Shown here in pieces: positions 20,561 to 39,128 of a DNA stretch of 64,000 bases (positions within the stretch are counted from its first letter, which is position 1; each line of letters starts with the position of its first letter). Both the position numbers and the translations under genes were made by a program. Under the pieces are notes generated by a model. The model saw only the letters and a program-made list of their open reading frames with translations. It was not told the DNA's origin and did not search any database. Source of the DNA: Sphingobacteriia bacterium (GTDB lineage: Bacteria > Bacteroidota > Bacteroidia > Bacteroidales > UBA7960); assembly GCA_011390785.1 (NCBI GenBank), contig JAABRR010000015.1, positions 51,150 to 115,149 of the forward strand. Reading direction: 5' to 3'.

Positions 20561-20593
20561 CTTCATTTGGGGTGTAATTAAATATTGGTGGTT

Positions 20594-21403: not shown

Positions 21404-21431
21404 TATAATTGTTCGTTTACTCCTTTACGCT

Positions 21432-21439: not shown

Positions 21440-21524
21440 CGGTATTAAACAGGAAGATATGGTCTGTTTAGTTTAATAATTGGCAAGTCCTTTCAATATT
21501 ATAACTCTCTTTTTTAACATCAGC

Positions 21525-21872: not shown

Positions 21873-21883
21873 TTTTGTATTGT

Positions 21884-22300: not shown

Positions 22301-22403
22301 TTATCTAAAAGGCCGGTTTTTATTTACCTTTTCAAAAACGACTAAATCAATAATCAATTTCACTCAACCATATCTCAACATATATTAAATCAGCTTTTAA
22401 GCC

Positions 22404-23783: not shown

Positions 23784-23803
23784 ACTTAATCAATTAATGA
23801 AAG

Positions 23804-24136: not shown

Positions 24137-24140
24137 CAGT

Positions 24141-24884
24141 ATGCAACAGTTTTTGGCCGATCTACATATCCATACTTTGCTTTCGCCATGTGGCGATCTG
24201 GAGATGAGCCCTGCCAATATTGTTGCCTCCGCTCAGAAGAAAAACCTTGATATTATTGGCATTGCTGACCATAATTCAACCAAACACGGGCCCCTGATTA
24301 AAAAACTTGCCGCAGCCTGCGGAATATTTACCCTTTGCGGTGCCGAAGTAACAACAAGGGAAGAAACTCATTGCCTGGCGTTCTTTGAGAATAATACATC
24401 ACTCAGTGAGTTTCAGGAATATCTGGATGCTCACCTGCCTAATGTTAAAAACGATCCTAAGTACTTTGGTTATCAGGTGGTTGTTGATGAACAGGAAATG
24501 ATTTTAGAAGAAGTGGAGAAGCTGCTTATTTCTGCCCTTAACCAATCCATTGATCAGGTTGAAAGAAAAGTACATTCGTTGGGTGGATTATTCATTCCTG
24601 CCCATATCGATCGGGCCAAGTTTAGTCTGGTAAGCCAGTTGGGATTTGTTCCACCAGGACTTAATGCCGATGCCCTTGAAATATCATTTAAAACCACCAA
24701 AGATCAAATGCTGAAACAGTTTCCCTATCTTAAAAATTTCAGCTTTATCCGTAGTTCCGATGCCCATTTTCCTGATCAGTTAGGTAATTATTCTACCATC
24801 TTTGAAATGGAAGAAGTAAATTTCGACGAAATTAAAAAAGCTTTAAAAGGTGTTGATGGCAGGAAGGTGATTATACAGGATTAA
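24141..24884 (+). CDS. PHP (polymerase/histidinol-phosphatase) family metal-dependent phosphoesterase
   Basis: 'ADLHIHTLLSPCGD', 'IGIADHNS', 'IPAHIDR' and 'SSDAH' are PHP metal-ligand motifs. Confidence 0.8.
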   Translation: MQQFLADLHIHTLLSPCGDLEMSPANIVASAQKKNLDIIGIADHNSTKHGPLIKKLAAACGIFTLCGAEVTTREETHCLAFFENNTSLSEFQEYLDAHLPNVKNDPKYFGYQVVVDEQEMILEEVEKLLISALNQSIDQVERKVHSLGGLFIPAHIDRAKFSLVSQLGFVPPGLNADALEISFKTTKDQMLKQFPYLKNFSFIRSSDAHFPDQLGNYSTIFEMEEVNFDEIKKALKGVDGRKVIIQD

Positions 24885-24969
24885 AAGTACATGTTTGATC
24901 AGGAATGCCGCTTACAGAATTATTTTCCAAAACCGTAAATCAACCACAATCCATTAACCATAATACTAA

Positions 24970-25509
24970 ATGAAAGAACTTTCACTACATGTACTTGATG
25001 TTATTCAAAATTCGGTGAGTGCCAATGCTGCCAATATTCATCTCATCATACATGAAAATTCATCTGCTGAAACCCTTACCATTATTATTGAAGATGACGG
25101 AAAAGGCATGGCTCCCGAAGTTCTGGGAAAAGTAACCGATCCCTTCTTTACATCGCGAACAACCAGAAAAGTAGGATTAGGAATACCCCTATTTAAGCAA
25201 AATGCTGAAATATCAGGTGGTTCCTTTAAAATAACTTCTCAATTGGGCAAGGGTACACGTGTAAAAGCCGTGTTTGGCCTTTCGCACTTCGATCGGCCTC
25301 CACTTGGCGATATTGCGGGTGTTGTTATGTTAATGGTAAGCTCAAATCTACATATCAATTTCTTTTATCAACACAAGATAGATCAGAAAATGTATGAGTT
25401 TAACACACCCGAAATAAAGGAGGTGCTTGAAGATCTGCCCCTGAATGACCCTGCGGTTATTCGTCACTTAAAAGAGATGATAAATGAGAATTTAAAAGAT
25501 TTAAGGTAG
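24970..25509 (+). CDS. GHKL-type ATP-binding protein (histidine-kinase-like ATPase, no DHp or sensor domain)
   Basis: 'LHVLDVIQNSVSANA' (N box), 'IEDDGKGM' (G1), 'DPFFTSRTTRKVGLGIPLFKQ' (G2 region) and 'GKGTRV'. Confidence 0.7.
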   Translation: MKELSLHVLDVIQNSVSANAANIHLIIHENSSAETLTIIIEDDGKGMAPEVLGKVTDPFFTSRTTRKVGLGIPLFKQNAEISGGSFKITSQLGKGTRVKAVFGLSHFDRPPLGDIAGVVMLMVSSNLHINFFYQHKIDQKMYEFNTPEIKEVLEDLPLNDPAVIRHLKEMINENLKDLR

Positions 25510-25913: not shown

Positions 25914-26312
25914 ATGACAAAAATTAAATCGTTAGCAGATTTAAAAAAAATGAAGAGCGATCTTCAATCACAAATTTCTATCAGACAAAAGAGTGAGAAC
26001 CCAGAGGGAAGAACACTCATCAGAATAGGAATGGGTACCAGTGGAATTGCATCTGGTGCAAAACAGGTTATGGAATTTCTAATGGATGAGTTGGAAAAAC
26101 GTAATGTGGATGCCATTGTAACACAGGTTGGCGATATGGGTTACAGTTATGCTGATCCTACTGTTGAGGTTACTGTTCCGGGCAAAGACCCATTGGTTTT
26201 TGGTGACGTTACCATCAAAAAAGCTGATGACATCATTGAAAAGTATATTAAAAACGGAGAATTGCTCGATGGCATCATTCCGGTAAATTATGAAACCATT
26301 GATAAAAAATAA
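25914..26312 (+). CDS. HndB-like thioredoxin-fold protein with no cysteine (cannot bind a [2Fe-2S] cluster)
   Basis: 'IRIGMGTSGIASGA...VTQVGDMGYSYADPTVEV' aligns with the (V)C(M)GTCGIAAGA ... GC.G.C..EP pattern of HndB/HydB-N domains, but every Cys position is replaced. The 132-aa protein contains no Cys. Confidence 0.6.
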   Translation: MTKIKSLADLKKMKSDLQSQISIRQKSENPEGRTLIRIGMGTSGIASGAKQVMEFLMDELEKRNVDAIVTQVGDMGYSYADPTVEVTVPGKDPLVFGDVTIKKADDIIEKYIKNGELLDGIIPVNYETIDKK

Positions 26313-26330
26313 TTAAGGAGGAATTTACGA

Positions 26331-28124
26331 ATGGCAAAATACAAAATGCATATGCTGGTTTGTGGGGGTACGGGTTGTCGTGCTTCTGCCAGCGACATGC
26401 TTTATGAAAGTTTAAAAAAAGAAGTTCAGGATAACAATCTGGAAAATGAAGTTCAGGTTGTTACTACCGGTTGCTTTGGGTTTTGCGAAAAGGGCCCCAT
26501 TGTTAAAATGATTCCCGACAATACTTTTTATGTGAGTGTTGAACCTAAAGATGCCAAAGAATTGGTGGCCGAGCATGCGCTAAAAGGTCGTAAGGTAAAT
26601 CGTCTTTTGTACGTGGACCCCACCAATAAGGAGCAAATATCAGACAGTAAGCATATGGGTTTTTACAAAAAACAAATCCGTATAGCTTTGCGCAATTGTG
26701 GTCTTATAAACCCTGAAAATATTGAAGAATATCTGGCTGCTGATGGCTACGAAGCTATGGGCAAGGTTTTGCTTGAAATGACACCTGAAGAGGCCATCAA
26801 AGTAGTTTTAGATTCCGGACTTCGCGGTAGGGGTGGTGGTGGTTTTCCCACAGGACTAAAATGGCAGATTGCCAGTAAAAACGAAGCAGACCAAAAATAT
26901 GTAGTTTGTAATGCAGACGAAGGCGACCCCGGTGCATTTATGGATCGTTCTATCCTTGAAGGCGACCCCCACACTGTACTCGAAGCAATGGTAATCAACG
27001 GATATTGTATTGGTGCTACCAAAGGCCTTATTTACATCAGAGCTGAATATCCACTTGCAATTCAAAGGTTGAAAATCGCTATTGGGCAGGCCCGCGAATT
27101 TGGCCTGTTAGGGACAGACATTCTTGGCTCTGGTTTTGATTTCGATGTTGAGATACGTTATGGTGCCGGAGCTTTTGTTTGTGGTGAAGAAACAGCACTT
27201 ATACATTCTATGGAAGGCGAAAGGGGAGAACCTACTTTTAAACCACCATTCCCCGCTCAAAGCGGTTACCTTGGTAAACCTACCAACGTAAACAATGTGG
27301 AAACGTACGCCAACATTCCTGTAATTATAAACAAAGGTGCTGAGTGGTTTTCTTCTATCGGAACAGAAAAATCAAAAGGTACCAAAGTTTTTGCACTGGC
27401 CGGAAAGATCAATAATGTAGGCCTTATTGAAGTGCCCATGGGTATTACCCTGCGCGAAGTGATCTATGAAATTGGTGGTGGCATAAAAGGCGGTAAAAAG
27501 TTTAAAGCTGTTCAAACCGGTGGCCCATCAGGAGGTTGCTTAACAGAAAAGCATCTCGATATTCCTATCGACTTCGATAACCTGATTGCTGCCGGTTCTA
27601 TGATGGGCTCAGGTGGTATGATCGTAATGGACGAAGATGATTGTATGGTGGCTGTTGCCAAATTCTATCTCGAATTTACTGTTGAAGAGTCCTGCGGAAA
27701 ATGTTCTCCGTGTCGTGTTGGTAACAAACGTCTTCATGAACAACTCGACCTAATTACAAAAGGGAAAGCGACAATGGAGGATCTTGACAAGCTGAAAAAC
27801 CTCAGTAATGTAATTAAAGATACTTCGCTTTGTGGTTTGGGACAAACATCGCCCAACCCCGTTCTTTCTACCATGGAAAATTTCTATGATGAATATGTGG
27901 CTCACGTTACCGATCATAGATGTCCTTCTGGTGTATGTAAGGATCTTATTCGCTACGAAGTAATTGCCGAAAACTGCGTGGGTTGTACTGCTTGTGCCCG
28001 TAATTGTCCGGTTAACTGTATTTCTGGTGAGCGCAAGCAGGTGCACCTGATCGACCAGGTTTTGTGCATCAAATGTGGTGCGTGCCTCGAGAAATGTAAG
28101 TTTAATGCAATTGCAGTGATTTAA
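26331..28124 (+). CDS. hydB: NuoF/HydB-type flavoprotein subunit, full-length (N-terminal [2Fe-2S], FMN/NADH, [4Fe-4S], C-terminal 2x[4Fe-4S])
   Basis: 'VCGGTGCRAS...TGCFGFCEKGP', 'GRGGGGFPTGLKW', 'CNADEGDPGAFMDR', 'GAGAFVCGEETAL', 'ESCGKCSPCRVG', 'CVGCTACARNCP' and 'CIKCGACLEKC'. Confidence 0.92.
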   Translation: MAKYKMHMLVCGGTGCRASASDMLYESLKKEVQDNNLENEVQVVTTGCFGFCEKGPIVKMIPDNTFYVSVEPKDAKELVAEHALKGRKVNRLLYVDPTNKEQISDSKHMGFYKKQIRIALRNCGLINPENIEEYLAADGYEAMGKVLLEMTPEEAIKVVLDSGLRGRGGGGFPTGLKWQIASKNEADQKYVVCNADEGDPGAFMDRSILEGDPHTVLEAMVINGYCIGATKGLIYIRAEYPLAIQRLKIAIGQAREFGLLGTDILGSGFDFDVEIRYGAGAFVCGEETALIHSMEGERGEPTFKPPFPAQSGYLGKPTNVNNVETYANIPVIINKGAEWFSSIGTEKSKGTKVFALAGKINNVGLIEVPMGITLREVIYEIGGGIKGGKKFKAVQTGGPSGGCLTEKHLDIPIDFDNLIAAGSMMGSGGMIVMDEDDCMVAVAKFYLEFTVEESCGKCSPCRVGNKRLHEQLDLITKGKATMEDLDKLKNLSNVIKDTSLCGLGQTSPNPVLSTMENFYDEYVAHVTDHRCPSGVCKDLIRYEVIAENCVGCTACARNCPVNCISGERKQVHLIDQVLCIKCGACLEKCKFNAIAVI

Positions 28125-28149
28125 TTAACTAATAACAGGAATTAATATA

Positions 28150-29922
28150 ATGGAACTTATCAAATTAACTATAGATAACAGAACTGTTGAGGTTGAAAAA
28201 GGTACCACTATTTTTCATGCAGCAAAAAAACTGGGTATCGAAATTCCCACGCTTTGCTATATGAACCTTAAGGACCTCAATATAGAGCACAAGCCCGGCG
28301 GTTGTCGTATTTGTGTGGTAGAAGTAGAAGGACGCCGTAACCTGGCACCCTCCTGTGCTACCGAATGTATGGAAGGAATGGTAGTGAAAACACATACCGT
28401 TCGTGTTCTCAACGCCAGAAGAACAGTATTGGAACTGATTATTTCTGATCATCCGTTCGACTGCCTTATCTGCGCCAAATCAGGCAATTGTGACCTACAG
28501 TCATTGGCCATCAAACTGGGTGTAAGAGATATTCCTTTCCAGGGCGAAAAGTCAACCTACAAGCCCGACTTTTCACCAGCCATTATCCGCGATATGGACA
28601 AATGTATCATGTGCCGCAGATGCGAAACCATGTGCAACGATTTTCAAACTGTTGGCGTGTTATCAGGCATCAACCGTGGTTTCGAAGCAGTTGTTGCACC
28701 CGCTTTTGAGCGCGACCTCGATCATAGCGAATGTACGTATTGCGGACAATGTGTGGCAGTATGCCCCACAGGCGCACTTACCGAAGTTGATCATACCAAA
28801 AATGTAATCGCTGCACTTTCTGATTCTAAGAAAACAGTTGTTGTACAAACTGCTCCCGCCGTTCGTGCTGCCCTGGGTGAAGAGTTTGGCCTTGAAGCTG
28901 GTACTTTGGTAACAGGTAAAATGGTTGCTGCATTACGTCAGTTAGGTTTTGACTATGTTTTCGATACCGATTTTGCTGCCGACCTTACCATCATGGAAGA
29001 AGGAACTGAACTTCTGGACAGACTTACCCGTCATTTGGGTGGTGATAAGGAAGTTAAGCTTCCCATCCTCACCTCCTGCTGCCCTGGTTGGGTTAATTTC
29101 TTTGAATACAATTACCCTGATATGATGGATGTACCATCTACAGCCCGCTCACCACAGCAAATGTTTGGTGCCATAGCCAAAACATATTTTGCCGAAAAAA
29201 TTAATGTGAAGCGCGAAGATATGGTTGTAGTTTCTATTATGCCATGTGTTGCTAAAAAATATGAATGTACCCGCGAAGAGTTCGCAACTGATGGCAACCC
29301 TGATGTTGATTTCTCCATTTCTACCCGCGAGCTGGCCCATTTCATCAAATCTGCCAACATCAATTTTAATGCATTGCCCGATGAAGATTTCGACAAACCT
29401 CTTGGCGAATCAACCGGTGCTGCAGTAATTTTTGGAACAACCGGCGGTGTTATTGAAGCAGCCGCCCGTACCGCTTACGAACTACACACAGGAAAAACGC
29501 TGGAGAAGGTTGATTTTGAAGCTCTCCGTGGCTTTGATGGAATCAGAAGCGCCAGCGTTGATTTTGATGGTGTTGATATTAAAATAGGTATAGCGCATGG
29601 GCTGGGCAATGCCCGCAAAATGCTCGATGATGTTAAAGCCGGCAGAAGCGAGTTTCATGCTATCGAAATTATGGCCTGCCCCGGTGGTTGCATTGGTGGT
29701 GGCGGTCAGCCATTGCACCATGGTGATTCATCAGTACTTAGAGCACGAGCCAAAGCAATATACTCGGAAGATGAGTCTAAAGTTTTGCGAAAATCACACG
29801 AAAACCCTTCCATTATTAAGCTTTACGAAGAATACCTGGGCAAACCCGGAAGTGAAAAAGCACACCACTTACTCCATACTCACTATTTTGATAAAAAATC
29901 AAAGCAGGTTTTATTGGATTAA
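28150..29922 (+). CDS. hydA: [FeFe]-hydrogenase catalytic subunit HydA, canonical H-cluster motifs
   Basis: 'ILTSCCPGW' (L1), 'MPCVAKKYE' (L2) and 'EIMACPGGCIGGGGQP' (L3). N-terminal [2Fe-2S], 'HPFDCLICAKSGNC', 'CIMCRRCETMC' and 'CTYCGQCVAVCP'. Confidence 0.95.
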   Translation: MELIKLTIDNRTVEVEKGTTIFHAAKKLGIEIPTLCYMNLKDLNIEHKPGGCRICVVEVEGRRNLAPSCATECMEGMVVKTHTVRVLNARRTVLELIISDHPFDCLICAKSGNCDLQSLAIKLGVRDIPFQGEKSTYKPDFSPAIIRDMDKCIMCRRCETMCNDFQTVGVLSGINRGFEAVVAPAFERDLDHSECTYCGQCVAVCPTGALTEVDHTKNVIAALSDSKKTVVVQTAPAVRAALGEEFGLEAGTLVTGKMVAALRQLGFDYVFDTDFAADLTIMEEGTELLDRLTRHLGGDKEVKLPILTSCCPGWVNFFEYNYPDMMDVPSTARSPQQMFGAIAKTYFAEKINVKREDMVVVSIMPCVAKKYECTREEFATDGNPDVDFSISTRELAHFIKSANINFNALPDEDFDKPLGESTGAAVIFGTTGGVIEAAARTAYELHTGKTLEKVDFEALRGFDGIRSASVDFDGVDIKIGIAHGLGNARKMLDDVKAGRSEFHAIEIMACPGGCIGGGGQPLHHGDSSVLRARAKAIYSEDESKVLRKSHENPSIIKLYEEYLGKPGSEKAHHLLHTHYFDKKSKQVLLD

Positions 29923-29940
29923 TTTTTATGGCAGGATAAT

Positions 29941-29968
29941 CCCCGGGAAATATGGAAATTTTCCGGGG
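29941..29968 (+). promoter_or_regulatory. intra-operon stem-loop between hydA and hydC (operon 2)
   Basis: 'ccccgggaaa' and 'ttttccgggg' form a 10-bp stem with one G-U pair and an 8-nt loop. No T-tract follows. It lies in the 93-nt hydA-hydC gap. Confidence 0.3.
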
Positions 29969-30015
29969 TCAAAGCCAGTAAAATACTTATTTCGTAACAA
30001 AAAAATATTTATATA

Positions 30016-30507
30016 ATGACATCAGTAAAACTAAAATTAAAAGAAAGTGATGTGCAGAAACTGAAAGAAGTAGCTAAATCTTTCAATAATGAAGCTGGTG
30101 AGCTGATCAATGTTTTGCACAAAGCTCAGGAAATATTCGGCTATTTGCCTGCTGAGGTGCAGGAAGTAGTAGCTCAGGAACTAAATGTTCCGGTGGCCAA
30201 GGTCTATGGGGTTGTAACCTTTTATTCCTTCTTTACTATGTTGCCCCGTGGGCGTTACCCTATTTCTATATGCACGGGTACGGCATGTTACGTAAGAGGT
30301 GCTGAAAAAGTACTTGATGAGTTCAAACGGATTCTTAAAATTCCTGTTGGTGAAACAACCTCAGATGGTAAATTCTCTATTACCTGTCTCAGATGCGTGG
30401 GCGCCTGTGGTTTAGCTCCTGTTGTGATGGTGGGCGATAAAACCTATGGCCGAGTTACAACCGACGGCGTTAAGGATATCCTGAAAGAATACGACACTGA
30501 AGATTAG
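30016..30507 (+). CDS. hydC: NuoE/HydC-type [2Fe-2S] subunit (operon 2)
   Basis: 'ICTGTACYVRG' and 'LRCVGACGLAPVVM' are the Cys ligands. 'VTFYSFF'. Confidence 0.9.
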   Translation: MTSVKLKLKESDVQKLKEVAKSFNNEAGELINVLHKAQEIFGYLPAEVQEVVAQELNVPVAKVYGVVTFYSFFTMLPRGRYPISICTGTACYVRGAEKVLDEFKRILKIPVGETTSDGKFSITCLRCVGACGLAPVVMVGDKTYGRVTTDGVKDILKEYDTED

Positions 30508-30531
30508 TCTTTGTTTCGTATAACTCCCATT

Positions 30532-30567
30532 AAAAAAAAGGGCAGTTTAACGACTGTCCTTTTTTTT
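30532..30567. terminator. bidirectional rho-independent terminator after operon 2
   Basis: An A8 run, the stem 'gggcagt'/'actgtcc' (7 bp, one G-U pair), then a T-run. It lies between convergent hydC (+) and the DUF5777-like gene (-). Confidence 0.65.
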
Positions 30568-30712
30568 GCTATTTTGTTGAAACATATCTTCGATAACCAG
30601 CATGTTACATTCTTATAAATACATTCCTTATTTATATTATATATTTAAAACCAAGCATTAAAAAATCAGAGTGCCATTTTTAGCATCCAATTTTAAATGA
30701 TTTTCTGTTTTC

Positions 30713-31603
30713 TCAAAGCTTAGGTTTTTTTATAGTGAATACCCGTACAATATTAAATCCAAAATAAATATCCCCTTTTAGCCAGTCGCCACGGGTCTCG
30801 GTAATGAAAGCACGTTCAAACATCGGTTGTGCATTGGTAAAGTGGAGTTGAAATACATGTCCGCCGGTTTCAAGGTCAAATCCAATAGAAAGCATATCTT
30901 TAAAACTTTCAGCGGTTGATGGGGTAAGTACCTGATAATATTCTGCATTAAAGGTTACCCGGTTGGTAAGTCTTAATCTTCCGCCGTATCCCAGAGCATA
31001 GATATCATTCGGATCCGCAATTTTCTCCACAAGATTTTTATGAACAAGGGTAGGGGTTAACTGAAACGAAATGCTGTTGGAAAATTTTCTGGCAATTAGA
31101 ATCTGATAAGTATATGATAATCGTGATGAGAAGTAATTTTCTCTTTCCGGATATCTCCATTTAAGGGAGTTTAGGTAGATGCCAGAAAATACAGATAGAG
31201 AGATAGGCATTTGTTTAGCCCCTGAGCTTTGTCGCAAAATTTTGTATTTGGCAAATCCATCAATTGTTTTTTCGAATGAACTTCTGCCTAATGAAACCGC
31301 AAGTCGATCGTTAATTCCATACTCAAAACCCATCCTAATCGTTGATTGATCAAGGCCCCATAGGTTGTAAGCTCCTTCATTTAGTCGTCCAAAGTGGTGG
31401 CTAATGATAAATTTCAATTCCCCATTGGGTGGATTTTCTATAGATTGACCGTTTACAATACGCGAAGTTTTGAACGTTGCATAGGCATATTCGGTAACAG
31501 GCTCCTGTTCTTCTTCAAGCATATCAAGCAAACCTTGTGATTGAATGCCTGGTAAAAGAAGAAAACAGAAGATTGAGATAAAATAAATACGTCTGGTTAG
31601 CAT
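30713..31603 (-). CDS. outer-membrane beta-barrel protein (DUF5777-like)
   Basis: It has a signal peptide, alternating beta-strand pattern and a C-terminal aromatic residue. It sits in the YceI/heme-motif operon context typical of this family. Confidence 0.45.
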   Translation of the reverse strand: MLTRRIYFISIFCFLLLPGIQSQGLLDMLEEEQEPVTEYAYATFKTSRIVNGQSIENPPNGELKFIISHHFGRLNEGAYNLWGLDQSTIRMGFEYGINDRLAVSLGRSSFEKTIDGFAKYKILRQSSGAKQMPISLSVFSGIYLNSLKWRYPERENYFSSRLSYTYQILIARKFSNSISFQLTPTLVHKNLVEKIADPNDIYALGYGGRLRLTNRVTFNAEYYQVLTPSTAESFKDMLSIGFDLETGGHVFQLHFTNAQPMFERAFITETRGDWLKGDIYFGFNIVRVFTIKKPKL

Positions 31604-31605
31604 AA

Positions 31606-32154
31606 TTACATTTTTTTAAGCGACACATCAACAGTTATTTCTATTTCTTCACTAATATTGCGCGAAACGGCTGAGGGTATGCTGATGTTATAATCTGCCA
31701 ATTTGATAGTGAAAACTGATTTTCCTGTAATCTGGTCACCGGCAATGGTTAATGTTCCTGGCTGGCTTATTTTGTTGGTAGCGTTTTTTATGGTAAGTTC
31801 ACCATCTACTGTAATATTGTAGGTGCCATTTTTGGTAAGGTCAACATCAGAAAGGTTTGCTATGCTTCCCTGAAATGTGGCATTGGGATATTCATGTGAT
31901 TCCACATAGTTTTCATTGAAATGCTCTTGCATCAGTGCCTTCTCAAAATTAAAAGAACGCATTAAAACCCTGAAGACGAATTCTCCGGTTTCAATATTTA
32001 AAGCACTGCTAACCTGTCGGTTTATGGCTTCAATATTTTCGAGCGGGGCTTCAGAATAAAAACGAATATATCCGTTACGTGTAACATAATTTTGTGCCAT
32101 CAGACCTGCGGATAGCAAAATGAGTAATGTGGATGTAATGAGTTGTTTTTTCAT
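31606..32154 (-). CDS. YceI family periplasmic polyisoprenoid-binding protein
   Basis: The likely start is 'MKKQLITSTLLILLSAGLMAQ'. 'SFNFEKALMQEHFNENYVESHEYPNATFQG' and 'TIKNATNKI' are YceI-like. The ORF is open to 32238. Confidence 0.7.
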   Translation of the reverse strand: MKKQLITSTLLILLSAGLMAQNYVTRNGYIRFYSEAPLENIEAINRQVSSALNIETGEFVFRVLMRSFNFEKALMQEHFNENYVESHEYPNATFQGSIANLSDVDLTKNGTYNITVDGELTIKNATNKISQPGTLTIAGDQITGKSVFTIKLADYNISIPSAVSRNISEEIEITVDVSLKKM

Positions 32155-32180
32155 GTCTGATTTATTTTTATTGGTTTTCT

Positions 32181-32615
32181 TTAATCTATTACAGAGCAGG
32201 ATTCTAAAATTACATCGGTTCCGGAAAACCCTGAACAAAATCCTTTTAGCTGAACTATAGTCCCCGAATTAATTTGTTTTACCGTATTGGAATGATTTTC
32301 AAGCATACTACACCGGATTCCTTCCGGGCCAAACATGCCTTGATCGAACGCAATAATAGCAATAACAAGACTATCTGCCTCTTCCACAGAATCCAAACTG
32401 CCTTCAATTTGAATAATTTTACCATTGTAAATTTGTTCGGCTTCCGATTGAGAATTGGCGAATGCATTGTATAATGCCTGAGCCGTCATTTCAAAATCTG
32501 GTTTGGCTTTTTCGTAATTTGTATGAGGTTTATTATAAACGAAGAAATACACTGCTGCAGCACCTATAAATCCCATTGCTGCAAGAATCAGAAAGATCTT
32601 TATCCATTTATTCAT
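32181..32615 (-). CDS. membrane-anchored OB-fold (tRNA_anti-like) protein, unknown function
   Basis: 'MNKWIKIFLILAAMGFIGAAAVYFF' is the anchor. 'AQALYNAFANSQSEAEQIYNGKIIQIEGSL' is typical of this small family. The ORF is open to 32657. Confidence 0.45.
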   Translation of the reverse strand: MNKWIKIFLILAAMGFIGAAAVYFFVYNKPHTNYEKAKPDFEMTAQALYNAFANSQSEAEQIYNGKIIQIEGSLDSVEEADSLVIAIIAFDQGMFGPEGIRCSMLENHSNTVKQINSGTIVQLKGFCSGFSGTDVILESCSVID

Positions 32616-32672
32616 GATAACAAAATTTAGTTTTACTAAACACGATAATAGAAGCAACTTACTTAATTTATC

Positions 32673-33041
32673 TTAGGGAGCTCCATTGGCTAACCATGCA
32701 TTTATTTTGGCCAGATCACAAGCTGGTAATTGGTTTTGCCCTTTGGGCATTGGCGAAAATCCTGGTAAGTGGTTTAAAGAGCCTTCCAGTTTGCCATTGT
32801 CAATAATGATTTGCAGATTATTACGATCGGCAGTTATTATGTTTCCTGATGGAGCTGATGCACTATGACATGAATTACAATTTGTTGCCAAAAGGTTGGA
32901 AACAAAATTAGCATAGGTAACATCTAGTGTATCACAATCTATATCGCTAAGGGGGTATAGATATTCTTCACTATCGTAATAGCATGATGAGAAATATAAT
33001 GTTACAGCTACCAGCAGAAGGGTTTTGGCGGTATGCTTCAT
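32673..33041 (-). CDS. small exported protein with one CXXCH heme-binding motif
   Basis: Lipobox 'FSSC' and 'CNSCHS'. The start ATG at 33041 lies just 3' of the upstream stop. The track start at 33062 would overlap the upstream gene by 20 nt. Confidence 0.5.
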   Translation of the reverse strand: MKHTAKTLLLVAVTLYFSSCYYDSEEYLYPLSDIDCDTLDVTYANFVSNLLATNCNSCHSASAPSGNIITADRNNLQIIIDNGKLEGSLNHLPGFSPMPKGQNQLPACDLAKINAWLANGAP

Positions 33042-33042
33042 T

Positions 33043-33747
33043 CTAGTTGTCTGGTGTTCCATTGTTTATCCATTTTTGAATTTGATCTGCAGGACATTGA
33101 GCCATAGCAGAGCCAGAGGGTGGCATAGCTGCAAAGCCATCAAGTCTGTTTATTGCTCCCATTAATCTTCCTGAATTGGCTATATCTGCTACCGCTGTAT
33201 AATTTGAAAGTATTACTCCTCCGTTGGCGCTACTCCCGCTATGACAACCCACACAACCATAGCTTTGCAAATTTGCAGTAACGGTTTGAGAGTAGGTTAC
33301 ATCATCAAGATTACAGGCAGTATCAATACATTCAAGATTTTTTGCACCCTGCATTATCCAGGTATAAACCATCTGAATTTGTTCTGTGGTAAAGGGAAGA
33401 TTGGGTGGAGGAGGCATCCTTTTGTCTAAATCATCTTCAGTCAATACCTCATAAAGATCACTTCCATTGGGGTTACCAGGACGTACATCGGCGGTCTGCA
33501 TAACCGATTCGTAATCTGTAAGTATTACCCCGTCCATTTGACTGGCTGCATCGTGGCATCCCGCACGGGCACAGGTAGATGCCAGCAGCGGGAGCAGGTC
33601 CTTGTTAAAATAGATAGTATCTGGATCGCATGTATTTCCTGTAATATCAGGATTCTGATCTTCTGAAACCAATGGTTCATGACGGCAGGCGTAAAAAAGC
33701 AGGATCAGAAAAGCAAACAGGAGAGAAGATGTTTTTATTTGCTTCAT
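33043..33747 (-). CDS. exported protein with cytochrome-c-like motifs (CX4CH and CXXCH)
   Basis: Lipobox 'FYAC', 'CARAGCHD' (C-x4-CH) and 'CVGCHSG' (CXXCH). The two halves repeat 'L.DYESVM/ L.NYTAV...'. Confidence 0.5.
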   Translation of the reverse strand: MKQIKTSSLLFAFLILLFYACRHEPLVSEDQNPDITGNTCDPDTIYFNKDLLPLLASTCARAGCHDAASQMDGVILTDYESVMQTADVRPGNPNGSDLYEVLTEDDLDKRMPPPPNLPFTTEQIQMVYTWIMQGAKNLECIDTACNLDDVTYSQTVTANLQSYGCVGCHSGSSANGGVILSNYTAVADIANSGRLMGAINRLDGFAAMPPSGSAMAQCPADQIQKWINNGTPDN

Positions 33748-33983
33748 AATAATTGAGTAATAATCAAAATTCTAAATATCAGTCAAATGTAAACAATTAA
33801 TTTAATTGGATGTTAATAATCGCTTTTAAGTTAATGGGTTCCCCGATTTTTTTGCGTTTTTTTGCTATTTGTTTTTATAAAAATTGGGTTGTTCCTTTTT
33901 TTGATATATTTATTTAAGATTTACTTCAACAAAAATTCTCTTCTGGATTTTCTTCTTCAGTTATTTTCTTATAGTTCATAATA

Positions 33984-34676
33984 TTATCCTGTTTTGCTTA
34001 TTATTTGCAGCTTTTCCCGCTCAGAAATGATAATATCTTTTCCAATAAGTTGAATTAGTGATTCTCTTTCAAATTCCTTTAAAAATTTCACAGCACTTTC
34101 CTGAGTTATTCCAGCAAAATCAGCAATATCTTGCCTGGTTAGATTTTCAAATATTTTTTCATATAAAAATTCTGGTGATGACAGGTAGCATAAAGCTGAT
34201 GCCAGTTTGCCCCGCATTTGTTTGTAAGAAAGATTTTTTATGATTTCGAGTAGCTGATTTTCAATGCGTTGATTTCGCGATGTTAATTGCATGGCGAATG
34301 CCGGATTTTGAAGCAAAACTTGCTTCAGGGCTTCTTTATCAATCATACAAATACGCGAATCTTTAAGGGCCATTGCCGAAAAATTATAGTACTCATTTCC
34401 AAAAACAGACGAGTAGGCCAGAAAGTCACCCGTTTTGGCAAGGTTAACATTTATGTGTCGTTTTGGGCCTGTTTGAAGAAACACTTTCACCAACCCCTCA
34501 ATTATATACAAAATGTAGGGGGCAAATGCACCCTGTTTAAAAAGGGTTTCGCCTTTTTCATACAAAAGCTGTGTCTTTTTTGTATTGATGAGCTCCAATT
34601 CTTTTTCGTTAAGCAAATGAAAGCATTCTGAAAGAACGGCATTCTGAAGGTAACTTTCTTTAATGTGTTTTTCCAT
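33984..34676 (-). CDS. Crp/Fnr family transcriptional regulator
   Basis: It has a cNMP-binding-like beta-roll region and a C-terminal HTH 'LTRQDIADFAGITQESAVKFLKEFERE'. There is no N-terminal Cys cluster. Confidence 0.8.
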   Translation of the reverse strand: MEKHIKESYLQNAVLSECFHLLNEKELELINTKKTQLLYEKGETLFKQGAFAPYILYIIEGLVKVFLQTGPKRHINVNLAKTGDFLAYSSVFGNEYYNFSAMALKDSRICMIDKEALKQVLLQNPAFAMQLTSRNQRIENQLLEIIKNLSYKQMRGKLASALCYLSSPEFLYEKIFENLTRQDIADFAGITQESAVKFLKEFERESLIQLIGKDIIISEREKLQIISKTG

Positions 34677-34708
34677 TGTACTTTAATGTTTGTCTTTATG
34701 GCGAAGAT

Positions 34709-34746
34709 ATTACAATTTCATAATAAAAAAGTTGCAAAATTGTAAT
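34709..34746. promoter_or_regulatory. 10-nt perfect inverted repeat in the crp/fnr - trx divergent region (candidate operator)
   Basis: 'attacaattt' (34709-34718) pairs with 'aaattgtaat' (34737-34746) across an 18-nt spacer. A third 'attgtaat' copy is at 34761-34768. Confidence 0.35.
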
Positions 34747-34902
34747 CGATCTGTTGTTGCATTGTAATGCCTATAATAGCAGCTATTTTGAAGTTTGTCT
34801 GTAATTTTGTCCCGCAATATTCAATAAGGATTTGAGCCGAATTATTTCACATCAGAATAATCTCAAAATTTAAATACTAACCAACAATTAATTTTTAAAA
34901 TT

Positions 34903-35253
34903 ATGGCAATGTTACAAACAGCGCTGCAGGAAATTGAAACTGCAGCAGAATTAAAAAAGATTATCAGCGAAAATGAAAATGTAATGGTATGTTGTGGCCG
35001 CATGGGGCCTATGTGTATTCCTGTTTACGAAGCCATGGAAGAATTGGAGGAAGACCGTGAAGATGTTAAGTTTTTCACTATGGCTTTCGACTCACCCGAA
35101 GCCAATATTATCAGAGAAGACCCTTCATGTCTTGGTTTCATGGGTTTGCCTTTTACCATGTATTACAAAAAGGGTGAAGTAGCTCATGCTACCAGCAGCA
35201 TCCAGTCTATGGAAAAAATTAAAGCTGTACTCAACGATAAGTTTGGCAAATAA
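34903..35253 (+). CDS. thioredoxin-fold protein with atypical active-site region (CCGRMGPMC instead of WCGPC)
   Basis: Trx-like pattern 'VMVCCGRMGPMCIPVYEAMEEL', with the cis-Pro region 'GLPFTMYY'. Confidence 0.55.
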   Translation: MAMLQTALQEIETAAELKKIISENENVMVCCGRMGPMCIPVYEAMEELEEDREDVKFFTMAFDSPEANIIREDPSCLGFMGLPFTMYYKKGEVAHATSSIQSMEKIKAVLNDKFGK

Positions 35254-35260
35254 TTGAGCA

Positions 35261-36208
35261 ATGGATGAAGTTTTTGATGTTATGATTTTGGGCGCCGGAG
35301 CTGCCGGACTAACTGCCGGAATTTACACTTCCCGGGCTAAATTTTCCACACTGATTCTTAACGAAGGGCCTATTGGCGGGCAGATGGTACTTACCAACGA
35401 GGTTGCCAATTATCCTGGTGTTGAAAAAACCACCGGTTATGCTATGGCCGGCATCATGAAAAAGCAAGCCAAAGAATTTGGTTGCAAAATAAAATCGAAC
35501 GTAAAGATAACCGAATATGACCTTGGTGAAAAGGTAAAGTCTGTTACGCTTGAAGATGGCCGTGTTTTTAAAGCCTGGAGTGTGATTCTTGCACCGGGTG
35601 GTAAATCCCGAACTTTAAATATACCTGGTGAAGATAAATTCAGGGGCTCCGGAATTTCTTACTGTGCTACCTGTGATGGCGAGTTTTTTACCGGAAAAGA
35701 AATTGTGGTAGTAGGTGGGGGTAATTCGGCCCTTGAAGAGGCGGTTGCTTTAACAAAATATGTCACCAAGGTTACCGTTGTTCATCAGTTCGATCATTTT
35801 CAGGCTTTTGAACATGCAGTAAGAGAAGCACAAAGCAACCCTAAAATTGAGTTTATCATGGAGTCTACACTTACAGAATTCACAGGGAATGAGAGCCTGG
35901 AAAGAGTAACCATCAAAAATATTCCAACAGAGGAAACCTATCAATATCCGGCCCAGGGCACTTTTATTTTTATAGGTTATTCGCCCAATACATCGGCTTT
36001 TAAGGGTATTGTTGAGATGAACGAAAGAGAAGAAATTATAACCAATAGCGAAATGCAGACTAACTTACCAGGTGTATTTGCTGCCGGCGATAGTATTGTG
36101 AAACGATACCGACAAATAACTACAGCGGTAGCTGATGGAACCATTGCTGCCCTCACAGCTGCCGAATATGTGGCAAAGACAAAAAAAGAAGAACTAGTGT
36201 TAAACTAA
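35261..36208 (+). CDS. thioredoxin-reductase-like flavoprotein lacking the NADPH-binding arginines (FFTR/DTR-like)
   Basis: 'ILGAGAAGLTAG' (FAD), redox 'CATCDG', and 'VGGGNSALEEA'. 'VHQFDHFQA' replaces the canonical 'HRRDxFRA'. 'FAAGD'. Confidence 0.85.
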   Translation: MDEVFDVMILGAGAAGLTAGIYTSRAKFSTLILNEGPIGGQMVLTNEVANYPGVEKTTGYAMAGIMKKQAKEFGCKIKSNVKITEYDLGEKVKSVTLEDGRVFKAWSVILAPGGKSRTLNIPGEDKFRGSGISYCATCDGEFFTGKEIVVVGGGNSALEEAVALTKYVTKVTVVHQFDHFQAFEHAVREAQSNPKIEFIMESTLTEFTGNESLERVTIKNIPTEETYQYPAQGTFIFIGYSPNTSAFKGIVEMNEREEIITNSEMQTNLPGVFAAGDSIVKRYRQITTAVADGTIAALTAAEYVAKTKKEELVLN

Positions 36209-36224
36209 AGTACTGTAAAAGGAA

Positions 36225-36806
36225 ATGTTAAAAGTAAATTCATTAAAACAACTACATTTATTGGTTAAAGCAGGTCAATCCAACTGGGTGTTTGTATATA
36301 AAAAAGGCTCAGAAGCCAGCGAATGTGCGCTTAAAAGTTTGGAAAGTGCTTTCAACAAGATAAAGGGTATTAATCTCTTTCTTGTTGATGTAACCGATGT
36401 AAGAGATATTCATACCCATTATAATATTACATCTGCTCCATCTTTACTACATTTGCAGGGAACAGTATTGAAGAATGTTGTAAAAGGCTGTAATGATGTT
36501 TCTTTTTACGAAGGAATTTTTAATAATTCGGTATTTGTAGCCCAATCTGCCAATGAAGAAAAACCATCAAAAAGGGTCACTGTATATTCAACTCCAACCT
36601 GTTCATGGTGTAATGTATTAAAATCCCACTTGAGACAACATAACGTCCGGTTTCAGGATATTGATGTTTCGCGCGACCAAAGAGCTGCCGACGAATTGGT
36701 AAAACGCTCAGGGCAAATGGGAGTGCCACAAACCGATATCAATGGCGAAATCATTGTAGGATTTAACAAAACCAGAATAAACGAATTACTGGATATAAAC
36801 GAATAA
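36225..36806 (+). CDS. two-domain redox protein: N-terminal monothiol Trx-like domain + C-terminal glutaredoxin/NrdH-like domain (CSWC)
   Basis: The C-terminal 'VTVYSTPTCSWCNVLKSHL...GVPQTDINGEIIVGFN' is a classical Grx-like fold. The N-terminal half has a Trx-like pattern with only 'GSEASEC'. Confidence 0.65.
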   Translation: MLKVNSLKQLHLLVKAGQSNWVFVYKKGSEASECALKSLESAFNKIKGINLFLVDVTDVRDIHTHYNITSAPSLLHLQGTVLKNVVKGCNDVSFYEGIFNNSVFVAQSANEEKPSKRVTVYSTPTCSWCNVLKSHLRQHNVRFQDIDVSRDQRAADELVKRSGQMGVPQTDINGEIIVGFNKTRINELLDINE

Positions 36807-36838
36807 ATTAGTATTAACTCATTAATGAAATTAATAGA

Positions 36839-37126
36839 ATGAAAGAAGTACAACCTGTAAATCAAAATGTTTTGCTGGAGTTTCCCGGCGATAATACCGA
36901 AAGAAAAACTGCATCGGGTATAATCATTCCTGATACCGTGAAAGAAAAAAATAATATTGCCAAAGTTGTTGCCATGAGCAATATTGATAATGCAGAAGTT
37001 TCCGTTGGCGATACTGTTATTTATAATGAATACAGTGTCAAAGAGATCGAAATTAATGGTAAAAAACATTTGATGATTCAGTATGCAGAAATCATGGCCA
37101 AATTGGTAGAAACAGAAACTATCTGA
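36839..37126 (+). CDS. groES: GroES/Cpn10 family co-chaperonin, orphan copy (no adjacent groEL)
   Basis: 'VLLEFPGDNTERKTASGIIIPDTVKEK' (mobile loop), 'VGDTVIYNEY' and 'INGKKHLMIQYAEIMA'. Confidence 0.75.
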   Translation: MKEVQPVNQNVLLEFPGDNTERKTASGIIIPDTVKEKNNIAKVVAMSNIDNAEVSVGDTVIYNEYSVKEIEINGKKHLMIQYAEIMAKLVETETI

Positions 37127-37159
37127 TCATCTCAAACACCAACTAACACAGTAATATTG

Positions 37160-37194
37160 AAAAAGCATTCCGAAATACAGGGATGCTTTTTTTT
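37160..37194 (+). terminator. rho-independent terminator after the trx/groES operon
   Basis: 'aaaaagcattcc' and 'gggatgcttttt' form the stem (one G-U pair), followed by a T8 run. Confidence 0.65.
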
Positions 37195-37306
37195 GCCCGA
37201 CTGTTAAATGTTTAATATAATGTTGAAAAAGTTAAACAAAATTGTTTTTTTGATGTTACCTGTTCGATATTTATTTTAATAAATAACCCTATAATATTTA
37301 TTCAAT

Positions 37307-38140
37307 ATGGAACAATTAGGTAATGCAACTTTTGAGAACTATGTAGGCCTGACTCAGGGTCTTAGTGAAATGGGCTACCAGATGGTAGCGCATGTTTTAA
37401 CACTTGGTTATGCTGTGATGCTGGCCGGGTTGTTTTATTTTATTTTAACCATAAAAACTGTAGCACCCAAATACAGAACATCTTCTGTGCTTTCAGTTGT
37501 CGTTATGGTTTCTGCTTTTTTATTGCTATATGCCCAGGCTCAAAACTGGACTAATAGTTTTGTTTTTGACGTTGAAAGAGGAAGATATTTTCTTGGTGAT
37601 GGAGTAGATTTGTTTAACAATGGATACAGATATTTAAACTGGCTTATTGATGTGCCAATGCTGTTATTTCAAATTTTATTTGTAGTTTCCTTAACTAAAT
37701 CTAAATTTTCAAGCATTCGGAATCAGTTCTGGTTTTCGGGTACAGGTATGATCTTAACAGGATATGTAGGTCAGTTTTACGAAGTAACCAATTTGGTAGC
37801 TTTTGCCGCCTGGGGAACTATTTCAACTCTTTTCTTCATCCACATCCTCATTCTTATGAAGAGAGTTATCAATGAAGGTAAAGAAGGAATTCCAGCTTCT
37901 GCTCAAAAAGCGTTGAATACAATCTGGTATCTGTTCCTGTTTTCATGGATGCTATATCCAGGTGCTTTCCTGATGCCACATTTGGCGGGTATTGAAGGAG
38001 CACTGTTTGGAGAAGCAGGTATTGTTGGTCGTCAGCTTACTTACACAATAGCTGATGTTACATCTAAAGTGATTTATGGTATTATGCTTACAATCGTAGC
38101 ACAAATCCTAAGTCAGAAGGAAGGTTACGAGCAGAAATAA
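37307..38140 (+). CDS. microbial rhodopsin, NDQ-motif light-driven Na+ pump (NaR, KR2-like)
   Basis: Helix C 'NNGYRYLNWLIDVPMLLFQILFVVSL' gives N111/D115/Q122. Helix G 'YTIADVTSKVIYG' gives D250 and the Schiff-base K254. The N-terminus 'LGNATFENY...LTLGYAVMLAGLFYFILTIK' matches KR2 closely as I recall it. Confidence 0.92.
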   Translation: MEQLGNATFENYVGLTQGLSEMGYQMVAHVLTLGYAVMLAGLFYFILTIKTVAPKYRTSSVLSVVVMVSAFLLLYAQAQNWTNSFVFDVERGRYFLGDGVDLFNNGYRYLNWLIDVPMLLFQILFVVSLTKSKFSSIRNQFWFSGTGMILTGYVGQFYEVTNLVAFAAWGTISTLFFIHILILMKRVINEGKEGIPASAQKALNTIWYLFLFSWMLYPGAFLMPHLAGIEGALFGEAGIVGRQLTYTIADVTSKVIYGIMLTIVAQILSQKEGYEQK

Positions 38141-38167
38141 TTAAGTTTATTTCGATACTTCTCCATT

Positions 38168-38223
38168 AAACTGTACGATCAACTTTAATTGTTAAGATTA
38201 ATGTTGATCGTACAGTTTTTTTA
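38168..38223 (+). terminator. strong rho-independent terminator after the rhodopsin gene
   Basis: Perfect 16-bp inverted repeat 'aaactgtacgatcaac' (38168-38183) / 'gttgatcgtacagttt' (38203-38218), followed by a T-run. Confidence 0.8.
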
Positions 38224-38478: not shown

Positions 38479-39003
38479 ATGAGAAGTAAAACGGTTCTAT
38501 TTTTATGTCTCTTTTTGACAGTATTGACTGTTAAAAGTCAGCATCCTTCAGTCTTCGGCTTAAATAACCAGGGTAAAATAGGGTTATCGGCTACACTTGG
38601 AAATCAATTACAGGGTGCTTCTGTTATTTACTGGTTCACTCCCCGTTTTTTAGTAACTCCTTCATTAAGTTTTAGCTATTTATCCAATAAAGAACTTGAT
38701 ATGTCTTTGGGTATTTCAACAAGGCATTATTTAAGGGTAGAACAATCATCATATTACTTGGGGCTAAGGATTGGGACAATACTGTTAAAGCCTTATGATG
38801 ATCCTGACGATAAATTTATTCGTACTGATTTATTTGCAGGTGTGAGTTTTGGGGTTGAGCATTTTTTTACCCGGTTTTTCACCCTGGGTATGGAGGTGCA
38901 AGGTGATTACCTGCAATCTGACGAACGATCTGATAGATTTGAAAACCAACGAGGGGTTGGAGTGGTTATCAGACCAGTAGTTCTGGTCACATTTTATTTT
39001 TAA
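38479..39003 (+). CDS. small outer-membrane beta-barrel protein
   Basis: It has a signal peptide, alternating amphipathic strands and a C-terminal 'VTFYF'. Confidence 0.5.
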   Translation: MRSKTVLFLCLFLTVLTVKSQHPSVFGLNNQGKIGLSATLGNQLQGASVIYWFTPRFLVTPSLSFSYLSNKELDMSLGISTRHYLRVEQSSYYLGLRIGTILLKPYDDPDDKFIRTDLFAGVSFGVEHFFTRFFTLGMEVQGDYLQSDERSDRFENQRGVGVVIRPVVLVTFYF

Positions 39004-39030
39004 TGTCAGAAAGTATTGTTATATAAAACT

Positions 39031-39066
39031 AAAAAAAGCTGTCATATTATCCTGACAGCTTTTTTT
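39031..39066. terminator. bidirectional rho-independent terminator
   Basis: A7 run, 'gctgtca', an 8-nt loop, 'tgacagc', then a T6 run. It lies between convergent genes. Confidence 0.65.
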
Positions 39067-39128
39067 GTTATTATTATAAATTGTGGATTATCTCAGATGA
39101 TCAAAACATCATTATTTAAGAAAGATCT

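Follow-up and report, generated by a model that had tools for sequence, protein, structure and literature searches.

Two sodium-pumping rhodopsins (NaRs) are the closest described counterparts of the gene considered here: KR2 of Krokinobacter/Dokdonia eikasta (PDB 3X3B, 4XTL) and IaNaR, a Na+ pump of Indibacter alkaliphilus for which both Na+ pumping and the photocycle have been measured (PMC10679507). Among light-dependent regulators, the CarH/LitR proteins are adenosylcobalamin (AdoB12)-dependent repressors that are released by light, sometimes with a relay through an extracytoplasmic function (ECF) sigma factor (PMC6739363). The operators of LitR proteins, as described for PplR1/PmlR2 of Pseudomonas, are bipartite palindromes of the form T(G/A)TACA-N12-TGTA(C/T)A that overlap the -35 element or the 5' untranslated region, and LitR regulons include photolyase, FolE and cryptochrome (PMC9758184). 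Here we analyse a NaR gene in a 64-kb stretch of DNA (hereafter "the window") from contig JAABRR010000015.1 of a Sphingobacteriia bacterium placed in the Bacteroidales, which also encodes several [FeFe] hydrogenases. Taken together, our analyses lead us to a reading to which we give a probability of roughly three in four: the gene would encode an IaNaR-like Na+ pump, made from a stand-alone, light-switched transcription unit and inherited vertically in a lineage of hydrogen-producing sediment Bacteroidales. To our knowledge, the light regulation of rhodopsin genes in Bacteroidota is poorly understood.

The rhodopsin and its sodium pathway

The NaR gene is an ATG-initiated open reading frame (ORF) at 37307..38140 (+) that encodes a protein of 277 aa, which matches PF01036 (Bac_rhodopsin) over aa 27-265 with E = 3e-46 and thereby qualifies as a type-1 (microbial) rhodopsin, a fold of seven transmembrane helices. 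Its helix C carries the peptide RYLNWLIDVPMLLFQ (aa 108-122, nt 37628..37672 (+)), including R108, N111, D115 and Q122, the last three of which occupy the positions of KR2 N112/D116/Q123 and of bacteriorhodopsin D85/T89/D96 and so define an NDQ rhodopsin. Helix G carries ADVTSK (aa 249-254, nt 38051..38068 (+)), in which D250 corresponds to KR2 D251 and K254 is the Schiff-base lysine, KR2 K255. An earlier, sequence-only reading of the window had named the same class and the same residues, and the ORF and alignments bear out its residue numbers; for the helix C motif it had the end (37672) right but set the start at 37637 instead of 37628. Its description of a KR2-like protein offset by one residue was likewise sound, as KR2 was matched in a PDB search with E = 7e-124 and 187/271 identities (69%), without gaps and with a one-residue offset. 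The match to IaNaR (8JH0) in the same search, also ungapped, had equal numbering and 219/275 identities (79.6%; E = 1e-146).

Apart from the cytoplasmic gate pair, all of the pathway residues that we checked are kept in the window protein (E10, Y24, H29, S69, D101, R108, E159, G170 and R242), as is the full release-side and oligomer-interface set of KR2/IaNaR (R109, S70, E11, E160, R243, H30, Y25 and D102). The cytoplasmic gate differs from that of KR2, in that N61/G263 is replaced by S60/T262. In KR2, cation selectivity changes when these two positions are substituted, and without Na+ NaRs pump H+; both facts favour a protein that does pump but is not selective for Na+ in vivo, moving mainly H+ or K+, for example. 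We nevertheless hold this to be decidedly improbable, given that the same S/T pair is present in IaNaR, whose Na+ pumping has been measured (PMC10679507), and that it represents the majority state among aligned relatives (63/83), with the rest of the pathway kept. The N/G state of KR2 was found in 9/83, a marine flavobacterial clade. Since a proven Na+ pump and most relatives share it, the S60/T262 pair is, on these alignments, a subtype difference that does not exclude the protein from the NaR class. The NDQ residues, R108, S69, G170, D250 and K254 are invariant across all 83 aligned relatives, and the functional residues do not vary over the 23 Bacteroidales NaR loci. Judged from its sequence, the window NaR is a genuine representative of the IaNaR-like subtype, and the protein itself is ordinary.

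From what is known of KR2 and IaNaR, a transport cycle can be proposed in which light would isomerise retinal on K254 and the Schiff-base proton would pass to D115; Na+ would then enter past the S60/T262 cytoplasmic gate, be held transiently near N111/D250, and leave past R108 and the E10/E159/R242 cluster. G170 (nt 37814-37816) lies at what we presume to be the site of the "fenestration" glycine of xanthorhodopsin (G156). Since G170 is kept, and since a preprint describes both conservation of the fenestration glycine in NaR-clade proteins and carotenoid binding by NM-R2, a carotenoid antenna or accelerator on the window NaR is conceivable.

Descent of NaR beside a hydrogenase operon

Upstream of NaR, on the same strand, lies a HydABC-type [FeFe]-hydrogenase operon, x132-HydB2-HydA2-HydC2 (25914..30507, +), which appears to be its ancestral neighbour. 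We know of no earlier description of a rhodopsin gene adjoining HydABC. In five other contigs, from other samples and other assemblers, NaR is again found on the same strand downstream of an orthologous HydABC2, and the arrangements can be ordered into three nested states. In state A, NaR directly follows HydC2, as seen in L003 (NaR 95% identical; a 244-kb JGI contig) and in L009 and L010 (86%), with HydABC2 operons that are 87-93% identical to that of the window. State B, found in L088 (NaR 94%), has the order HydC2, Crp(-), x116-TrxR-Grx-GroES, NaR, x174, and in state C, that of the window itself, a 3.4-kb block at 30568-33983 is added to the order of L088. At the nucleotide level the window and L088 are 82.0% identical in the segment containing NaR (35257-38141), compared with 80.6-82.4% in the flanking segments, while the synonymous divergence (dS) between them is 0.97 for NaR and 0.60-1.43 for HydC2, GroES, TrxR and x174. 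In addition, a further metagenome-assembled genome (MAG), L012, carries a NaR (84% identical) and a 91%-identical pyruvate phosphate dikinase (PPDK) on one 86.6-kb contig. The linkage, together with the parity of NaR and its flanks in identity and dS, leads us to infer that NaR stood next to HydABC-2, probably immediately downstream of it, in the common ancestor of the lineage. Within this lineage the ratio of non-synonymous to synonymous divergence (dN/dS) of NaR is 0.02-0.095, and by these comparisons the gene is vertically inherited and under strong purifying selection.

This has to be set against the idea, part of which the sequence-only reading had raised as an alternative, that NaR was acquired recently by horizontal transfer, or that the contig is a chimera of an aerobe and a fermenter, in either of which cases the hydrogenase context would be meaningless. 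NaR is patchily distributed over Bacteroidota, the order of genes from HydC2 to NaR varies among relatives, and in a neighbour-joining tree of the 83 relatives a sequence from Pararhodonellum (aerobic Cyclobacteriaceae, 85% identity) stands beside the window/L003 pair. Yet when 37307-38140 was compared with its flanks, no deviation was found: the GC content of NaR is 0.376 (z = -0.39), that of third codon positions has z = -0.54 relative to the window, and in codon usage 41 of the 56 genes lie farther from the window mean. Tetranucleotide profiles correlate at r = 0.91-0.97 in every 4-kb segment of the window, and read depth is flat at 12-13x over 24-44 kb in two sediment-metagenome runs. The junctions are spanned by contigs covering 30144-34929 and 35142-40985/41347, and TrxR-Grx-GroES-NaR-x174 is exactly reproduced in two Logan assemblies. 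With the HydABC2-to-NaR order and strand repeated in five other contigs, and with NaR no different from its flanks in identity and dS to L088, both a recent transfer and a chimeric contig become highly improbable. As sequences of aerobic Cyclobacteriaceae are interspersed in the NaR tree, NaR has probably moved between Bacteroidota orders at some earlier time.

A palindromic box and a candidate light regulon

NaR is bracketed by two intrinsic terminators. That of GroES (37159..37194, +) consists of a hairpin at 37159-37192 with a 13-bp stem and an 8-nt loop, followed by a T-run (dG = -16.5 kcal/mol, z = -4.5; 0/200 shuffles fold equally well), and that of NaR (38168..38222, +), which begins 28 nt past the stop codon, of a hairpin at 38168-38218 with 22-nt arms that are 95% complementary, a 7-nt loop and T7 (dG = -27.3 kcal/mol, z = -8.55). 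Since a separate GroES terminator and its own terminator enclose it, NaR forms a stand-alone transcription unit, in keeping with its earlier description as monocistronic with a very strong terminator. A consensus scan for sigma-70 promoters and terminators was not relied on, as it missed the NaR terminator and found 6 promoters against a shuffle expectation of 9.8. The Bacteroidetes-type -7 element has the form TAnnTTTG; inspection by eye of the region upstream of NaR gave no convincing element of this kind, and a search of the whole window against Rfam at gathering thresholds detected no RNA family, nor a riboswitch in the vicinity of NaR.

Between the GroES terminator and the start of NaR lies a palindromic box, TGTTTAA-N16-TTAAACA (37209..37238, without strand), the right arm of which ends 68 nt before the NaR ATG and which we consider a putative operator. 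The exact box occurs once in the window, against 0.00 copies expected, and its arms are invariant in the aligned upstream regions of five relatives that have different upstream genes (GroES, HydC, DHODH). With one mismatch allowed, 26 members of a non-redundant set of 80 NaR upstream regions contain it, almost always with a 16-nt spacer and with its end 46-70 nt ahead of the ATG, compared with 3 of 600 random background segments. When scored at this canonical position upstream of NaR, the box was present in 19/23 Bacteroidales, 3/14 Cytophagales, 0/16 Flavobacteriales (a set that does not contain KR2's own locus) and 0/12 Cyclobacteriaceae loci.

A second, box-like site, TGTTTAA-N16-TTAAACt (37611..37640, without strand), lies inside the NaR coding sequence over codons L102-W112, 402 bp from the upstream box. 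Its one mismatched base is dictated by the Trp codon, and the site overlies the invariant LFNNGYRYLNW codons. It is present in 11 of 25 loci that have the upstream box and in 2 of 48 that do not (p = 6e-5, at equal GC), a difference that shared ancestry could explain. Codons vary in the spacer, while in the arms the synonymous positions are kept fixed. The site may be an auxiliary operator, a coincidence or a product of shared ancestry.

Boxes were also observed at other genes in contigs that carry rhodopsins. On the Cytophagales-like contig L033, an exact box (16408-16437) precedes a proteorhodopsin-type gene with a DTE motif (15637-16398, -), while the NaR 6 kb away has none; on L175, also Cytophagales-like, a proteorhodopsin-type gene with a DTE motif (940-1686, -) has a box upstream at 1777-1806. 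Since these proteorhodopsins carry the box and the L033 NaR does not, different types of rhodopsin seem to be wired to it in different lineages. In a Maribacter MAG (L086), a box (4833-4862) stands before a gene for a fasciclin-domain lipoprotein (4914-5495), immediately upstream of NaR (5661-6533). In a "Bacteroidales" sediment MAG from Salar de Ascotan (L031), in which the box upstream of NaR is degenerate (3 mismatches), there is, about 9 kb from NaR, a gene with MerR and B12-binding domains (19601-20458, -; its product and the L146 protein share 37% identity).

For an unbiased view of the genes linked to the box, the bare 14-base pattern was sought in metagenome contigs, which yielded matches on at least 120 Bacteroidota-like contigs (L090-L209). 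All of the counts that follow in this paragraph are among the matches listed. A rhodopsin gene was found on 1 of 120 contigs (L175), and the notion of a rhodopsin-specific box was rejected in favour of a broader light regulon. Within 4 kb of the box we identified ECF sigma genes (14 loci, 12 of them directly downstream), CrtI-type desaturases (14), fasciclin genes, which are among the genes most frequently preceded by the box (12), genes combining a MerR helix-turn-helix with a B12-binding domain, the CarH/LitR architecture (10), photolyases (9), phytoene synthases (8), SRPBCC-like (6) and PTPS (6) genes, GTP cyclohydrolase I (5) and NUDIX/Idi genes (4). One or more genes for ECF sigma, CrtI, CrtB, Idi, PTPS, FolE, photolyase, fasciclin or MerR-B12 proteins are present within that distance on 43/120 contigs, and on 31/74 of those of at least 4 kb. 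Two typical units have the form [box]-ECF-CrtI-CrtB-Idi-PTPS-FolE, with MerR-B12 alongside, and [box]-PTPS-FolE-SRPBCC-SDR-photolyase. The symmetry of the box reaches beyond the arms used for selection (tttTGTTTAAy-tTtt...a-aat-TTAAACAaaa), which argues for binding by a dimeric protein.

Because ECF-sigma/crtIB, photolyase/folE and fasciclin operons beside MerR-B12 genes also have this box upstream, NaR is probably light-regulated, and the box can be read as the putative operator of a Bacteroidota light regulon in which NaR is one target. A MerR-B12 photoreceptor-repressor would then keep NaR repressed in the dark and allow its expression in the light. If this is correct, the box defines a light regulon, so far undescribed and spanning the Bacteroidota, to which rhodopsin genes belong, provides a concrete link between these genes and the light-response circuitry (MerR-B12, ECF sigma) of carotenoid and photolyase genes in this phylum, and could be used to mark light-regulated genes in genomes. 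In the literature covered by a limited full-text search, we found no rhodopsin gene reported as a LitR/CarH target, no description of the box, and nothing specific on ECF sigma factors, fasciclin and light in Flavobacteria.

The box could instead be something other than a CarH/LitR operator, namely the -35/-10 elements of an ECF-sigma promoter under autoregulation, or a site bound by some unrelated dimeric regulator, in which case NaR would answer to a cue other than B12-sensed light, such as photo-oxidative or envelope stress. Its location immediately ahead of ECF sigma genes in 12 loci among the matches listed, a 16-nt spacing typical of promoter elements, the lack of a MerR-B12 gene in the window, and the light induction of crt genes in Streptomyces via an ECF sigma factor (PMC6739363) are what would be expected in that case. 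Perfect inverted-repeat arms, with symmetry that extends into the flanks and the edges of the spacer, are on the other hand atypical of sigma elements; in several operons, 2-3 nt separate the right arm from the start codon; and MerR-B12 genes adjoin the box in 10/120 contigs among the matches listed. On balance this alternative is a real possibility, though we lean against it and retain the B12-dependent light switch as the preferred account.

Retinal supply, host and comparison with known systems

Retinal formation by Blh needs O2. In the window, neither Pfam scans of ORFs of at least 90 aa nor six-frame tblastn searches with a Blh seed detected a Blh or Crt gene. The sequence-only reading had noted this absence correctly, but the argument it carried does not stand. 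When roughly 80 loci were searched for hydrophobic ORFs of the size of Blh up to 10 kb from NaR, with tblastn as a complement, blh (PF15461) was found directly downstream of NaR in L079 (9203-10114) and, via tblastn, in L075 (10885-11685), both Lewinellaceae, whereas the other ~78 loci lack it within 10 kb; no Bacteroidales NaR locus has blh or crt within that distance. With blh linked to NaR in 2 of ~80 loci, aerobic isolates included, its absence from the window is uninformative, and linkage was dropped as a gauge of retinal capacity. The host could make its own retinal or scavenge it. Rhodopsins of Saccharibacteria that lack retinal synthesis are reported to rely on external retinal (10.1101/2022.02.13.480300 / PMC9296517).

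An intact but idle NaR, carried as a decaying passenger by an anaerobe that cannot make retinal so that the opsin is never reconstituted, would agree with the fermentative look of the host segment and with the lack of blh/crt both in the window and in the 10 kb on either side of NaR in every Bacteroidales locus. It is very improbable in view of the low dN/dS reported above, reached at dS of ~1-2 and reflecting constraint like that on HydC2, TrxR and GroES, and of functional residues that are invariant over the 23 Bacteroidales loci. The regulatory box is moreover retained, an ortholog is transcribed in sediment (see below), blh is unlinked as a rule even among aerobic carriers, and external retinal has a reported precedent in Saccharibacteria (10.1101/2022.02.13.480300).

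The relatives of the window PPDK at 79-97% identity all come from uncultured "Bacteroidales bacterium" MAGs, and many carriers of the S/T subtype of NaR are "Bacteroidales" MAGs from soda-lake or saline sediments and mats, so that the earlier view of NDQ rhodopsins as belonging mostly to marine Flavobacteriia does not hold for this subtype. Salar de Ascotan sediment is among the sources, and the name codes DLM, GEM and LCM presumably denote soda-lake mats. The codes CSSed and T3Sed denote Kulunda soda-lake sediments, top 10 cm (PMC6146748), in which rhodopsin-containing Bacteroidetes had already been noted by Vavourakis et al. In the literature searched there was no report of a NaR-hydrogenase linkage and nothing specific on NaR in anaerobic Bacteroidales/ML635J-40.

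The window NaR itself was found in DNA runs (sediment metagenomes) and not in RNA runs. A box-bearing NaR that is 82% identical to it, from a Cock-Soda-type sediment MAG (L020), is represented in an alkali-sediment metatranscriptome by contigs covering 5550-5800 and 5823-6305 at a depth of 7-9, with neighbours at 12.5 and 24.7. Both intergenic regions fall in gaps between the transcript contigs, which argues that the signal is RNA as opposed to DNA carry-over and that the transcript is discrete, ending just past the stop codon.

The host would be an uncultured sediment member of the "Bacteroidales" that possesses two hydrogenases of the HydABC type, a HydS/Rex sensing module and PPDK. NaR would probably serve it by supplementing a low-energy fermentation with sodium-motive force made from light, or with Na+ extrusion, in surface sediments and mats that are saline or alkaline and reached by light. 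The suggestion of a light-exposed fermenter made in the sequence-only reading has gained from the sediment source runs, the six-contig NaR-HydABC linkage, the light-regulon box and the transcribed ortholog, and is plausible. The more specific proposal, that fermentative, H2-producing Bacteroidales of anoxic or micro-oxic photic sediments use a B12-light-switched Na+ pump with scavenged retinal, and that the resulting sodium-motive force relieves the limits of fermentation (e.g. through Rnf or a Na+-ATPase), is offered tentatively, as a rather doubtful extension. By these results NaR is a stable trait, under selection and expressed, in a hydrogenase-bearing, uncultured Bacteroidales lineage of saline or alkaline sediments, which would extend rhodopsin photoheterotrophy towards fermentative, low-oxygen niches and sharpen the question of where the retinal comes from.

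A number of points weigh against our reading of the locus. Outward, light-driven and Na+-selective transport is attributed to the window NaR by homology, and the transcript evidence concerns an 82%-identical ortholog in another sample, seen as assembled contigs and at steady state. Besides the missing Blh and Crt genes, scans of the 64-kb window found no MerR-B12 (CarH/LitR) gene, and Pfam scans of it found no Rnf, Nqr or ATPase gene. The label of fermentative anaerobe would follow from this single 64-kb segment, which also encodes c-type cytochromes. As to the box, characterised LitR sites have different arms and an N12 spacer, compared with TGTTTAA/TTAAACA and N16 here, and an ECF-sigma promoter or another dimeric factor is a possible alternative reader; among the matches listed, 105/124 box sites lie outside ORFs, a figure inflated by the occurrence of an AT-rich pattern in AT-rich intergenic DNA.

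For the remaining genes of the window, annotation came from Pfam scans of every ORF of 90 aa or more. The richness in [FeFe] hydrogenases recognised at the outset was confirmed and extended, since besides the operon upstream of NaR there is a second HydABC-type cluster by Pfam architecture, HydC1-HydB1-HydA1 (16664-20190), and a third, HydS-like [FeFe]-hydrogenase homolog (22404-23783), with Fer4, an H-cluster domain and PF04060. Both HydABC clusters combine an H-cluster HydA with a NuoF-like (flavin mononucleotide, 4Fe-4S) and a NuoE-like (2Fe-2S) subunit in one operon, and from this domain architecture they may be predicted to have bifurcating activity. The HydS-like gene is flanked by DRTGG, HATPase and PHP genes (block 21480-25509) and accompanied by a gene for a Rex-like regulator (20585). 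The set as a whole (20585-25509), which lies between the two HydABC clusters and is kept in L003, L009, L010 and L088, looks like an H2/redox-sensing module.

Between the second hydrogenase operon and NaR, the 3.4-kb block (30568..33983, -) holds genes for a DUF5777 beta-barrel, YceI, an OB-fold protein, x129 and a PSCyt1 c-type cytochrome (30713-33747). It is missing from the otherwise collinear L088, where the blastn alignment breaks, and this comparison marks it as an insertion, specific to the lineage, that separates the hydrogenase operon from Crp; x129 (129 aa) is weakly cytochrome-c-like. There follows a block shared with L088 (33984..37126), made up of a Crp/Fnr gene (33984, -) and, divergent to it, the unit x116, TrxR-like, Grx-like and GroES (34903-37126, +). 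The TrxR-like protein (35261-36208) has kept CATC and both Rossmann motifs. HRRxxxR is the canonical NADPH-binding motif of TrxR, and its replacement by HQFDHFQ suggests that this flavoprotein uses a donor other than NADPH, possibly ferredoxin, which fits the earlier remark on a "ferredoxin-type" thioredoxin system.

Downstream of NaR, x174 (38479..39003, +) encodes what is predicted to be a small, lineage-restricted outer-membrane beta-barrel of eight strands. Its AlphaFold2 model (pLDDT 80) has a signal peptide and 8 strands, with the OprF N-domain, NspA and OmpA-TM as top Foldseek matches; the family comprises 7 clusters only among 5.8 billion proteins and matches no Pfam family at cut-off. 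Homologs with 45-75% identity lie 3' of NaR in L003, L009, L010, L012 and L088. x174 is probably transcribed separately, and a bidirectional terminator (39030..39067, without strand; dG = -18.5 kcal/mol, z = -8.0) serves both it and a convergent gene of 285 aa. A partnership with NaR, for example in retinal uptake, was rejected for this generic and lineage-restricted barrel; with a strong terminator between the two genes, x174 is regarded as a syntenic neighbour. Farther downstream are a SusC/FecR/ECF set, PPDK and HisRS. Two genes that recur beside NaR in Bacteroidales MAGs are absent from the window, one of 155 aa from the SnoaL_3/DUF4440 (NTF2-like) family (L012 11038-11505) and one of 98-102 aa (L012 12273-12581); such neighbours are also seen in L009, L010, L020, L040 and L056. 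Four loci, among them L073 and L080 (13981-14940), have a gene of the Na+/Ca2+ exchanger family (PF01699) no more than 10 kb away from NaR; two of the four are Psychroflexus.

Compared with described systems, the window NaR has the NDQ motif and the Na+ pathway residues of KR2, with S60/T262 in place of N61/G263. With IaNaR (8JH0; PMC10679507) it has in common NDQ, D250, K254, R108, the E10/E159/R242 cluster, H29 and the S60/T262 pair itself. It differs from IaNaR in setting, as the host of the latter is an aerobic, alkaliphilic Cyclobacteriaceae isolate without a hydrogenase neighbourhood and the region upstream of its gene has no palindromic box (best match, 4 mismatches). The hydrogenases resemble the trimeric, electron-bifurcating HydABC with HydS/Rex of the Thermotoga/Thermoanaerobacter type, the window HydA likewise having 2Fe-2S, 4Fe-4S, H-cluster and SSU domains. 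The rhodopsins described from Saccharibacteria resemble the window locus in pairing an opsin with no recognisable retinal biosynthesis, so that retinal from neighbouring cells is possible in both; they are H+ pumps in episymbionts, however, and for the window the absence of blh covers 64 kb and the flanks of NaR loci. The box, for its part, resembles LitR/CarH operators in being a bipartite palindrome with outer TGT...ACA over promoter or 5' regions, and the genes linked to it resemble LitR/CarH regulons in content, with photolyase, FolE, carotenoid genes and an ECF-sigma relay, and with MerR-B12 regulators adjoining the box.

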